This document shows, piece by piece, positions 721 to 49,711 of a stretch of 49,711 nucleotides of DNA. Origin of the DNA: Armatimonadota bacterium (GTDB taxonomy: Bacteria; Armatimonadota; UBA5829; DSUL01). Location: NCBI GenBank assembly GCA_039811685.1, contig JBDHZC010000011.1, positions 1-49,711 of the forward strand, read 5' to 3'. The position numbers and the translations under genes were made by a program. Position 1 is the stretch's first letter, and every line of letters starts with the position of its first letter. Below the pieces are notes generated by a model. That model saw nothing but the letters and a program-made list of their open reading frames with translations. It did not search any database and was not told where the DNA came from.

Positions 721-851
721 TGATACTGCGGTGGTCAAAAGCCTCTGGGAATGACCGGTCCTGAATGCAGAAGCCGCCAAAACATAATGACATAACGGGA
801 ATGGCACACTCCTCAGGCCTCTCGTCCTCTACCGAACTCAATTCCCGCAGC
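721..851. repeat. Family C palindrome (GCTGCGGGAAT...ATTCCCGCAGC) interrupted by an IS110 remnant
   Basis: Removing 732-796 and one GG restores a near copy of 46010-46076. Confidence 0.9.
732..796 (-). mobile_element. 65-nt left-end remnant of the IS110 element
   Basis: Reverse complement equals 48132-48196 except the first two nt (GT vs TA). Flanked by CC on both sides on the minus strand (730-731, 797-798). Confidence 0.92.
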
Positions 852-45976: not shown

Positions 45977-46078
45977 TTTCATTCCTCCAGCTCGTAAAGG
46001 CGCGCGACTTGATGCTGCGGGAATGGCACACTCCTCATGCCCCTCGTCCTCCACTGACCTCAATTCCCGCAGCATCTG
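45977..46078. repeat. Half A motif plus intact family C palindrome (unoccupied IS110 target)
   Basis: TTTCATTCCTCCAG at 45977; perfect 14-bp stem GATGCTGCGGGAAT (46011-46024) / ATTCCCGCAGCATC (46063-46076). Confidence 0.9.
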
Positions 46079-46631: not shown

Positions 46632-46856
46632 TTCCATCCCTCCAGGTTTCCCCAACCTGGAGGCCAAACGCCGTACTCATAGTCTCACCTACCGCTGAGT
46701 GCGTCAAGGCTGAGGCTTTGGTCCTGCGGGCTTCTTGATGCTGCGGGAATGCCGCACTCCTCATGTCTCCTGGAACCTCAGGCTCGAAAACGGCCGAACC
46801 TCCTCGCCCGCGTTTTAGATCCCGCCAGGTTTCCCAACCTGGAGGCATCGAAATGC
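46632..46856. repeat. A hairpin - C left arm - A hairpin cluster
   Basis: A at 46632-46663 and 46819-46845; GATGCTGCGGGAATGCCGCACTCCTCATG from 46737. Confidence 0.85.
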
Positions 46857-46862
46857 TTCCTC

Positions 46863-47945
46863 TCATTTGCGCGTCAGCGCCTCCATCAGCCGTGGGTTAA
46901 AGAACAGGCGCTCGCGCCCCACCTTCGTGCCTGCGAGAATGCCGATGCGCTCGAGTTCGCGCAGGTATTCGGATGCCGTGTTCCTGCGGGCAATGCCCGC
47001 GGCCTCCACCAGCCCAATGCGGGTGTAGGGTTGCGAGAACACCATATCCAACAGCTCCCGGCTGTACCCCTTCCGCATTCCGGACCTGGCCATTTCGGCG
47101 GCCTCATCTATGGCTCTGCGAACGGAGCGCAGCATGGCCCTTGTCATAACGGCGGTTTCCTCAATCGCCCGGAGCATGTACAGAATCCATTCCTCCCACG
47201 CATCCGCCTCCGTCACCGCCCGCAGGCGCTCATAATACTCGGACTTGCTGGGGACGATGTACCAGCTCAGGTACAGCACAGGCATCTCCAGCATTCCGCT
47301 CTGCAGCAAATAGAGGATGTTCAACACACGCCCCGTGCGCCCGTTGCCATCGGGAAACGGATGGATGGCCTCGAACTGGCGATGTCCGGCAGCCATCTTG
47401 ATGAGAGGATCAATGCCGTCGCCAGCCGCGAGCCATCCGCACATGACGTTCAGCATGTCGAGGATCCGATCACGCCCAATGGGCGGCGTGTACACCACCT
47501 CGCCCGTCCTGTCGTTGACGATCCGGCATCCCTCGCCGGAACGGACGTCCGTGTCTGCTCCCTTTATGCGACGGGCGAGATCAATGAGCAGCGACGGGCG
47601 GATGGGGCGTCCCTCGCGCAGATCCCGGTACCCCGCCCACAGCGCCTCGCCGTAACGCAACACCTCACGGGTGCGCGGGTCGGCCGCCTCGGGGCGCTGA
47701 TCAAATGCCCGGTAGAGGGCATCGTTGGTGGTAACGACATTCTCGATCTCCGAAGACGCGCGCGCCTCCTGCAGCAGGATGGCGCGAAGCAGCACCGCCT
47801 GGTTCGGGACGAGATCGCCGCCCGCATTCAACTCGGCCAACACCCGGTTTGCGGGTATGGCCGCCTTCAGTGTTCGGGCGGTCTCCAGCCTGTCCGCCGC
47901 GGGAATCGGAGGCAGATAGTTGTAGGGCCGGTTACGGTCGAACAT
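46863..47945 (-). CDS. Fic/DOC family adenylyltransferase with C-terminal HTH
   Basis: HPFPDGNGRTGR catalytic motif; SSEIEN inhibitory motif; GAGG RBS before ATG 47945. Confidence 0.93.
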   Translation of the reverse strand: MFDRNRPYNYLPPIPAADRLETARTLKAAIPANRVLAELNAGGDLVPNQAVLLRAILLQEARASSEIENVVTTNDALYRAFDQRPEAADPRTREVLRYGEALWAGYRDLREGRPIRPSLLIDLARRIKGADTDVRSGEGCRIVNDRTGEVVYTPPIGRDRILDMLNVMCGWLAAGDGIDPLIKMAAGHRQFEAIHPFPDGNGRTGRVLNILYLLQSGMLEMPVLYLSWYIVPSKSEYYERLRAVTEADAWEEWILYMLRAIEETAVMTRAMLRSVRRAIDEAAEMARSGMRKGYSRELLDMVFSQPYTRIGLVEAAGIARRNTASEYLRELERIGILAGTKVGRERLFFNPRLMEALTRK

Positions 47946-48148
47946 GCACGCACCTCGTGGGTTTTGCCCCATTATACACGCGCAGAGCCCAAGACGCGTG
48001 CATATTATGGCCATCCGCACGCGCTGCGTGCATTTTTTTCATCCCTCCAGGTTTCCCAACCTAGAGGTTCTGTATGCTGCGGGAATATCGGTTTCCAGTC
48101 ATCCATCACGCTGGTGGGCCTCGTCATTCCCTATATGTCATTATGTTT

Positions 48149-48298
48149 TGGCGGCTTCTGCATTCAGGACCGGTCATTCCCAGAGGCTTTTGACCACCCG
48201 CTGCGGTCTGTCCGTTTGCAGATGAGTGTGAGTACCGATGGAGAGTTGTGCTTCGAGCACCGATATAGGGACGCATCACGCCTCGAGAGCAGCCGCCA
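48149..48298 (+). ncRNA. IS110 bridge RNA (target-binding and donor-binding loops)
   Basis: Closing stem TGGCGGCT/AGCCGCCA; LTG 48173-48181, RTG 48200-48206, LDG ~48240-48247, RDG 48263-48269. Confidence 0.88.
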
Positions 48299-48312
48299 GG
48301 AAAGGGAAGACG

Positions 48313-49494
48313 ATGAACTTCGTTGGGATTGATTGGGCAGACCAGACCCACCGTTTGTGCATACTGGGTGATGAAGGGCAGCGCCTGGAGAGTTTCGAGA
48401 TCGCTCATGGCCGTAAGGGCTTTGAAGCCGCCCACAGCAGGATCGCCAGGCACGGCACACCTGATGCCACAAGGATCGCCATCGAGACCAAGGACTCGCT
48501 GCTGGTGGACTTTCTTGTTGAGCTTGGCTACGCGCTGTATTTCGTGAACCCCAAACAGACGGATCGCTTTCGCGACCGCCACAGGATGAGCCGCTCCAAG
48601 TCTGACGCCTTCGACGCTTTCGTCCTGGCTGACGCGGTCAGGACGGATCATCAGTTGTTCAATGCGCTGTCGCCGCTAGACGAGACGAGCCTGCAACTCA
48701 GGGTCCTCACACGTTCGAGGGAGGGGCTTGTTGGCAGGAAAGTTGCGGTGCACAACGAGATCACCTCACATCTGAAACGCTACTTTCCGGTGGCGAGTGG
48801 GCTGTTCGGCGGACTAGACAACGCCGCGGCCATCGCTTTCCTGCTACAGTATCCGACCTTGGAGCAGGCAAAGACAGTATCGCAGGCCAGGATCACTGCC
48901 CTCCTGATCAAGGAAGCCAGGGTCACACCGGCCATTGCCGTCAGGCACGCCACCAGGGCACGCGCGCTTCTCTCGGAGCCCCAGGCTGCAGCCAGCTCAT
49001 CTGTTACCCGAGCCTATCCGGTAGCGGTACAGTCACTGCTACGTCAGTTGAAAAGCATTCTGGCTGAACTGGAAGCGCTGGACCGGGAGATCGCCTCGAT
49101 CTACGACCACCATCCGAACAAAGAGCTCCTTCAATCTTTGCCCGGGGTGGCCGAGACGCTGGGCCCCGTGCTCGCAGCTGAGCTGGGGACAGACGTTACC
49201 CGCTTTGTCAATCTGAGAGGCCTGAAGGCTTTTGCCGGAACCAGCCCTGTCACCGTGCAAAGCGGCAAGCATCGCAGCGTCCACATCCGGCGCGCGTGCA
49301 ACCAGCACCTCAGACAAGCGTTACACATGGCCAGCCTTGTAGCTGTGAGAATAGCCCCCTGGGCGAGAGAACTTTTCGACCGGCTGCGCAACGAGGGCAA
49401 GACCTACGGCCGCGCCCTGAGAGCTGTAGGCGAGCAACTCCTGGAAATACTCTATGTCCTTCTCACGCGCCGGACACGCTATGACGAGGGCTAG
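48313..49494 (+). CDS. IS110 family recombinase (DEDD RuvC-like plus Transposase_20)
   Basis: FVGIDWA, IAIE, KSDAFDA, LQSLPGV, FAGTSPVTVQSGK; AAGGGAAG RBS. Confidence 0.96.
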   Translation: MNFVGIDWADQTHRLCILGDEGQRLESFEIAHGRKGFEAAHSRIARHGTPDATRIAIETKDSLLVDFLVELGYALYFVNPKQTDRFRDRHRMSRSKSDAFDAFVLADAVRTDHQLFNALSPLDETSLQLRVLTRSREGLVGRKVAVHNEITSHLKRYFPVASGLFGGLDNAAAIAFLLQYPTLEQAKTVSQARITALLIKEARVTPAIAVRHATRARALLSEPQAAASSSVTRAYPVAVQSLLRQLKSILAELEALDREIASIYDHHPNKELLQSLPGVAETLGPVLAAELGTDVTRFVNLRGLKAFAGTSPVTVQSGKHRSVHIRRACNQHLRQALHMASLVAVRIAPWARELFDRLRNEGKTYGRALRAVGEQLLEILYVLLTRRTRYDEG

Positions 49495-49604
49495 CATATG
49501 CGGATGAAGGCGTTGCACGGCAGCATAATCGCAGCCCGAGTTTGACATAGAGAGTCCGCAGCATCTGAGGTTGGGAAATCTGGAGGCGTGAAAATATTCG
49601 ATCT

Positions 49605-49711
49605 TCACGGCAGGGAGTCCCCTCCAGGCAGGTCTGCCCAGCGAGGAGTGTACACCTGCGTGCGGCCGCTCTTCAGCCAGCGCACCATCACGCTTTGCGG
49701 GGGAACGGTGG
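49605..49711 (-). CDS. 3' end of a minus-strand gene entering from outside the window
   Basis: Open frame ...VMVRWLKSGRTQVYTPRWADLPGGDSLP* stops 10 nt from the repeat end. Confidence 0.35.
   Translation of the reverse strand, partial: TVPPQSVMVRWLKSGRTQVYTPRWADLPGGDSLP

Follow-up and report, generated by a model that had tools for sequence, protein, structure and literature searches.

The window analysed here is a 49,711-nt stretch of DNA in which positions 48132–49557 constitute an IS110-family element of 1426 bp, counting one core, with CC flanks at 48130–48131 and 49556–49557. All features of the element are given on the + strand. The gene at 48313–49494 encodes a 393-aa IS110-family recombinase, recognized from its Pfam domains, DEDD_Tnp_IS110 (PF01548; 2.4e-35) and Transposase_20 (PF02371; 1.2e-18), and from matches to solved structures, the sole ones being ISCro4 (1.4e-19) and IS621 (3.2e-19). 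Its GID, E, SKSDAFDA (SKxDAxDA), and QSG motifs line up with those of ISCro4, and the protein is predicted to combine an N-terminal DEDD RuvC-like domain with a C-terminal Tnp domain carrying the catalytic Ser. A putative bridge RNA is encoded in the 181-nt left end, 5′ of the recombinase gene, and the right end spans ~60 nt; this layout, a long left end holding the RNA and a short right end, places 48132–49557 in the IS110 group as judged from the DNA. Directly left of the insertion, on the − strand, lies a Fic/DOC-family gene (window 46863–48020) with Fic_N, Fic, and SoFic-like C-terminal domains.

The element boundaries were read against its insertion site. The left target half (LT, positions 1–7) is GTCATTC at 48123–48129, identical to 48173–48179 within the LTG of the putative RNA, and its positions 6–7 are TC (48128–48129), the partner bases of the donor-loop handshake dinucleotide considered below. 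The left CC core dinucleotide follows (48130–48131), CC being the only sequence common to both junctions, and the element then starts with the right donor half (RD) TATAT (48132–48136), which is the reverse complement of 48263–48267 and pairs with the RDG. At the other end, direct reading places the left donor half (LD, positions 1–7) AGAGAGT at 49549–49555, with GT at 49554–49555 as its positions 6–7, and the right CC core at 49556–49557. The right target half (RT) GCAGCAT (49558–49564) comes next, and its first five bases pair with the RTG. A right-end fragment on contig C1 is likewise followed directly by CC-GCAGCAT, as at 49556–49564. CC was found at both ends in all relatives with recovered ends, a non-independent result since the searches required CC.

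The element sits in a repeated intergenic target, CATTC-CC-GCAGC. The window contains five exact copies of the uninterrupted target ATTCCCGCAGC, and at ≤1 mismatch there are nine matches against 1.59 expected, a count reached in 0 of 100 shuffles; in the 3.4-Mb assembly, CATTCCCGCAGC occurs 15 times and its reversed control not once. At the empty sites, CATTC-CC (the end of 48123–48131) runs straight into GCAGC, and the same genome holds two further left-end copies with differing outer flanks, each behind CATTC-CC. The TC at 48128–48129 is therefore target DNA and the GT at 49554–49555 is element DNA. A reading of the TC as element DNA, forming part of a longer inverted repeat, was ruled out because the empty sites join ATTCCC directly to GCAGC.

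Unoccupied copies of ATTCCCGCAGC lie at window positions 46014–46073, 46740–46750, 48076–48086, and 841–851, clustered and in both orientations; they adjoin a REP-like palindrome of the CCCTCCAGGTTTCCCAACCTGGAGG type (e.g., at ~46638, 46826, and 48043), and one of them is ~45 nt left of the insertion. Partial copies of the element are also present. On the − strand at window 730–803, a 74-nt left-end fragment (L004), 97% identical and preceded by CATTC-CC, ends in GACCACC, immediately followed by GCAGTATC, a half site resembling the right target. Its structure suggests nucleotides 1–67 of the left end with everything beyond them deleted exactly to the right boundary, and the deletion could have been caused by the recombinase or by a 4-nt microhomology, CCGC. 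Contig C5 of the same genome carries a 271-nt left-end copy (L002; 23685–23955) with its own flank, GGGTCT-GTCATTC-CC, which breaks off after an internal TGGAGAGT (window 48385–48393 in the full copy). Since TGGAGAGT and the next T repeat the LDG stretch 48239–48247 at 9/9 positions, the break falls at a site that the donor guide could recognise. The left flank of L002 also holds CCCTCAAATCCCGAAACACC, which is the exact unoccupied target (left half, CC, and right half) of the relatives L046 and L067, and the genome therefore carries sites for a relative not seen there. The contig C1 fragment (L003; 213576–213851, same genome) is a 276-nt right end that lacks the upstream part of the element, and after its CC-GCAGCAT the flank is a different one.

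The fold of the putative bridge RNA was derived with RNAalifold from 36 distinct sequences, since the single-sequence fold of 48128–48312 was no better than shuffles (z 0.39) and structure claims consequently rest on the alignment. The target-binding loop and its closing stems occupy 48157–48222. Compensatory changes were found in the outer stem (TCTGCA 48157–48162 with TGCAGA 48217–48222), where U:A becomes C:G in nine sequences and C:G becomes U:A in five, and the inner stem is formed by GGAC (48167–48170) and GTCC (48210–48213). The donor-loop hairpin GTGC-TTCGA-GCAC (48248–48260) has one pair that changes from C:G to U:A in 17 of the 36 sequences. A search of region 47900–49711 against Rfam 15 at E ≤1 returned two chance-level matches, to a miRNA and a snoRNA, and none to a bridge-RNA family.

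Four guides are readable in this RNA. The LTG, GTCATTCCC (48173–48181; GTCATTC plus CC, in top-strand sense), is 9/9 identical to 48123–48131, and the RTG, GCTGCGG (48200–48206), is the reverse complement of 49556–49562 (CC-GCAGC) at 7/7 positions. The LDG, GGAGAGT (48240–48246), is identical at 6/7 positions to the right end AGAGAGT (49549–49555), and the RDG, ATATAGG (48263–48269), is complementary to CC-TATAT (7/7). These strand rules match the description of IS621 in PMC11208160. We compared the window element with its close family, which numbers 51 loci when the window is counted; the relatives come from genomes and metagenomes and are 55–93% identical at the protein level. A scan of genome contigs with the single protein gave two loci, and an alignment-based scan recovered the same seven places as the genome search. 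The upstream regions of the family can be aligned along the entire RNA, and CC-TATAT stands upstream of the bridge RNA in 41/51 loci. The RDG is invariant across all 36 aligned sequences, the RTG covaries with RT (GCCGC, GAAAC, TCTCC, and others), and the LDG variants AGGGAGT, AGAGAGT, and GAAGAGT each occur with a matching right end. Among 33 distinct relatives with both flanks, LTG agreed with LT at an average of 5.85 of 7 positions (shuffled mean 3.53, maximum 4.33) and RTG with RT at 5.45 of 7 (shuffled mean 3.38, maximum 4.21). The guides thus track their flanks beyond every one of 2000 shuffles, and the first-pass annotation, made from the letters of the window, had placed LTG, RTG, LDG, and RDG correctly.

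Some members of the family depart from this pattern. The left junction of L049, L050, L053, and L027 lacks one C predicted by the LTG (GAAAT-CC vs. GAAATC-CC), and the right half matches; by their sequences, we read these as register-shifted or half-matched insertions. L032 and L047 keep the donor-binding loop and the recombinase and have the target-binding-loop half replaced by unrelated sequence.

Joining the two ends of the element would bring together the parts of a promoter. The right end contains a −35 hexamer, TTGACA (49542–49547), which is TTGACA in 40 of 41 loci and TTGACT in the other, and the left end contains a −10-like hexamer, CATTAT (48139–48144), located 17 nt after TTGACA once the ends are joined. 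The spacing TTGACA-17-[T/C]AnnnT is kept in 40/41 family loci having both ends. TTGACA-17 nt-CATTAT is accordingly a candidate sigma-70 promoter that would form solely on the circle junction, its activity being predicted from these motifs.

The bases next to the right guides are of particular interest in light of the handshake model for IS621. According to Hiraizumi et al. 2024 (PMC11208158) and a 2026 Nature paper (PMC13626964), once the top strands are exchanged, the dinucleotide directly 3′ of the RTG pairs with donor positions 6–7 and the dinucleotide directly 3′ of the RDG with target positions 6–7. Cognate pre-exchange pairing blocks insertion and post-exchange pairing promotes it, with opposite effects on excision (PMC11208158, PMC13626964). 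In the window element both candidate dinucleotides lie directly 3′ of GG: UC (48207–48208) after the RTG in the target loop, and GA (48270–48271) after the RDG in the donor loop.

The donor-loop GA is complementary to the target TC at 48128–48129 and would form two Watson-Crick pairs with it after exchange. Direct reading bore out the first-pass observation that the RDG extended by two nucleotides, ATATAGGGA (48263–48271), is the reverse complement of TCCCTATAT (48128–48136) at 9/9 positions. The accompanying statement that both extra positions mismatch the donor (GT-CC-TATAT) is accurate in that the bases differ; it overlooked that G48270 opposite T49555 can form a G·T wobble, so that the pre-exchange state against donor GT comprises this wobble and an A48271/G49554 mismatch. 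For the target loop, the extended RTG GCTGCGGTC (48200–48208) has the reverse complement GA-CC-GCAGC, and the reported 0/2 extra matches to the target TC-CC and 1/2 to the right junction GT-CC-GCAGC (49554–49562) were both reproduced by direct reading. UC therefore has zero pairs with target TC before exchange; after exchange it faces donor GT, where C48208 can pair with G49554 at position 6 (C:G) and position 7 is a U/T mismatch, U48207 pairing with neither donor T49555 nor target C48129. For the element as a whole, zero Watson-Crick pairs and one G·T wobble before exchange give way to 3/4 pairs after it. The proposed IS621 handshake pattern consequently stands for the donor-loop GA and only by half for the target loop, given the mismatch at position 7, for which a covariation signal has been published. 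The suggestion that this pattern independently supports the guide assignment adds little, as a 2-nt match is weak (a 2/2 extension has a chance of 1/16) and the assignment rests on other, stronger evidence. By our own arithmetic, the chance of ≥3/4 handshake positions in the window element alone is 13/256. A match of this kind in a single element is suggestive, and the weight lies with the relatives.

Across the 51 family loci, the donor-loop dinucleotide is GA in 44, GC in 4, AA in 1, and CA in 1, with one unscored; the four GC cases are 93%-identical copies with a broken recombinase frame. The target-loop dinucleotide is AC in 27, UC in 17, and GC and CC in one each, with five unscored. The right end finishes in GT in 47/47 loci where it was recovered, and likewise in L061. 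Every one of the 35 distinct cases scored on all four counts had more Watson-Crick pairs after exchange than before it, the number rising from 0 to 3 in 16, from 0 to 4 in 11, from 1 to 2 in 5, and from 1 to 3 in 3. Much of this agreement among family relatives is shared descent: the donor GT is invariant, and GA and target C7 are nearly so. UC is confined to one clade, which holds the window (12 bridge-RNA types) and is explained by one change on the tree (support 93/87), and for this reason U48207 is best described as a derived loss of a pair and not as a covarying base. Pairing of U48207 with another donor base within its clade was ruled out, all recovered right ends there finishing in GT. 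The two nearer clades have T at target position 6 without exception, and the more distant clade has A, C, or G there opposite an RNA base that stays A. Two loci carry a different first donor-loop base. In L061 a donor-loop C accompanies an LTG specifying G, the left junction being cut off by the contig end. In L055 a donor-loop A faces target A7 and would pair with donor T7, a pairing reported to inhibit or cripple IS621 in the accounts consulted (PMC11208158, PMC13626964); its recombinase frame contains two stops, and L055 may be a decayed copy.

The comparison was then widened to distant Armatimonadota relatives (32–37% identity), which share the donor-loop scaffold. A DNA pattern built on this scaffold, which fixes the donor GT in the LDG, returned 84 loci across several phyla, all with a CC core. 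It replaced a shorter pattern limited to the donor-loop hairpin, the hits of which were mostly chance matches in GC-rich genomes (~7 of 82 with a recognisable RDG). The loci L194–L277, with the scaffold, a CC core, and a GT right end, come from Alphaproteobacteria, Myxococcota, Acidobacteriota, Gemmatimonadota, Chloroflexota, Actinomycetota, and Armatimonadota, and some of these genomes carry at least 10 copies. The merged sets contain 128 loci with 95 distinct bridge-RNA sequences, 77 of which have a recovered left junction.

In these 77 types, the first donor-loop handshake base forms a Watson-Crick pair with target position 7 in 75 (G:C 73, C:G 1, and A:T 1), the two exceptions being one register-shifted junction and L055. 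None of 10,000 shuffles, in which relatedness was ignored, reached 75 (mean 70.2, maximum 74). On a recombinase tree of 57 types the first base changes twice, and both changes are complementary to target position 7, giving C with G7 in L250 and A with T7 in L267. The second donor-loop base pairs with target position 6 in 42 types (A:T 27, G:C 9, and C:G 6) and is unpaired in the other 35; the same number of shuffles, again ignoring relatedness, averaged 25.4 and peaked at 36, none reaching 42. The predominance of target C7 with G opposite (73/77), the modest pairing at position 6 (42/77), and the scope for a G·T with donor T7 throughout the family would all fit an effective three-base target core (C-CC), in which G48270 belongs to an 8-nt RDG that tolerates G·T and A48271 is irrelevant. 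We consider such a core barely credible: position-6 pairing lies above every shuffle, with the GG/CC and GC/GC combinations contributing to it, and position 167 of IS621 affects efficiency in the experiments we drew on (PMC11208158).

A different alternative, unlikely in our judgement yet the most serious, combines scaffold conservation with coincidence. On this view GA and UC would be conserved because they serve structure or protein contact at the 3′ margin of their loops, the LTG and the repeated target used by the family would be what fixes the target TC, and the complementarity would have no function. Several observations are in keeping with it. GA, found in 62/95 bridge-RNA types, fails to track target position 6, the donor-loop A being retained with A, C, or G at that position in 29 of 56 A-bearing types; the 57-type tree shows 7 changes of the second donor-loop base against 17 of target position 6; and a comparison of independent pairs had just 2–4 usable contrasts, none of them significant, with C/G going the wrong way as often as the right. 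Independent changes are too few to prove covariation of the handshake bases among the 77 types, and for the window element alone the 1/16 chance noted above applies. Coincidence would nevertheless leave unexplained that both changes of the first base complement a changed target position 7 (C:G in L250, A:T in L267), and that donor-loop GG occurs with target CC in 9/10 types and GC with target GC in 6/10. The LTG itself also argues against it, with positions 1–5 varying freely (1.5–2.0 bits) while position 7 is held (0.74 bits; 1.26 bits at position 6), and published IS621 experiments show that the handshake positions matter (PMC11208158). The target-loop side can carry no covariation signal here, as the donor GT is invariant or fixed by the search pattern. 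Among 65 scorable types its dinucleotide is AC, which fully complements donor GT, in 50, UC in 12, and AT, GC, and CC in one each.

Collectively, these results indicate that UC at 48207–48208 and GA at 48270–48271 are probably IS621-type handshake guides, belonging to a CC-core element new to the IS110 group, a function assigned by analogy with IS621. Conservation and a small number of compensatory changes speak for the donor-loop pair at position 7; the position-6 pair and the target-loop side are no more than consistent with the handshake model. From the complementarities, element ends, guide–flank covariation, and conservation and covariation at position 7 observed here, we infer that the pairs form and influence recombination as follows. 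Prior to top-strand exchange, UC and GA would make zero Watson-Crick pairs with their own substrates. After exchange, GA would pair with target positions 6–7 (TC) and C48208 with donor position 6 (G), and this gain of three pairs should draw insertion forward. Once the element is integrated, the same three pairs would hold its two junctions and should make excision less favourable.

The latter point bears on whether the extended guides serve mainly to read the integrated left and right junctions, for excision or for retention of the element, and not to drive insertion. What the 9/9 match reproduces is the left junction of the integrated element, and in IS621 the same bases pair with the left- and right-junction substrates before exchange in the excision complex (PMC13626964). 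According to that same source, such pre-exchange pairing lowers excision in IS621 and the same bases raise insertion. Junction recognition is thus the reverse side of the handshake model, not a mechanism of its own, and as a primary function it seems highly improbable.

With the handshake reading as the starting point, the variation within the CC-core group permits a more speculative proposal, which we put forward tentatively and would not expect to hold in full: that handshake strength is naturally tuned, an ancestor having had four post-exchange pairs and different lineages having reached three by different routes. The ancestral target loop appears to have been AC, with the donor loop matched to the target. 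The clade of the window would then have fixed an unpaired U as the first target-loop base, and distant relatives would have lost the donor-loop pair at position 6. Such differing routes to three pairs may govern how insertion and excision are balanced. Beyond the published signal at position 7, there may also be a second, more weakly covarying handshake position, namely position 6. The natural handshake states (donor loop GA, GG, GC, CA, and AU; target loop AC, UC, and rare others) are ready-made test variants, usable against the published rule that handshake pairing sets the efficiency of insertion and excision. The handshake feature is already published for IS621 and the finding reveals no new mechanism; what it adds, from an Armatimonadota-like genome, is a clearly delimited natural bridge-RNA element whose sequence directly reveals its target, its donor, the four guides, and the two handshake dinucleotides.

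IS621 from Escherichia coli, with handshake guides at RNA positions 81–82 and 166–167, is the natural point of comparison. Both elements have a DEDD/Ser IS110-family recombinase and a left-end bridge RNA containing target and donor loops. In each, the left guides (LTG and LDG) are in top-strand sense and the right guides (RTG and RDG) are complementary to the top strand, a 2-nt core is present at both ends, and the −35 hexamer, a candidate one in the window element, lies in the right end. In both, the two bases 3′ of each right guide can pair with the noncognate positions 6–7 (a likeness drawn for the window element from its bases), and the layout at position 7 is the same, with target C, donor T, and donor-loop G (G166 in IS621). 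Wild-type IS621 also shares the G·T wobble seen here at G48270/T49555. The net change in pairs is from 1 to 3 for wild-type IS621, by the account in PMC13626964, and from 0 to 3 for the window element. There are also differences. The proteins are distant (E 3.2e-19, mainly through the C-terminal domain) and the core is CC, whereas that of IS621 is CT; unlike in IS621, the LDG core positions are TG and do not match CC. The first target-loop handshake base is a mismatched U in the window element versus A81 paired with donor T7 in IS621, and the second donor-loop base forms an A:T pair versus a G·U wobble in wild-type IS621. The ISCro4 transposase (PDB 9t56) is the best solved-structure match (E 1.4e-19) with both domains aligned, a distant relationship drawn from protein comparison only. 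Elements of the IS1111 group (seekRNA/3′-encoded guide RNA) have a recombinase of the same family and RNA-guided target choice. They are described, in PMC11208160, as having short left and long right ends, in contrast to the 181-nt left end and ~60-nt right end of the window element.
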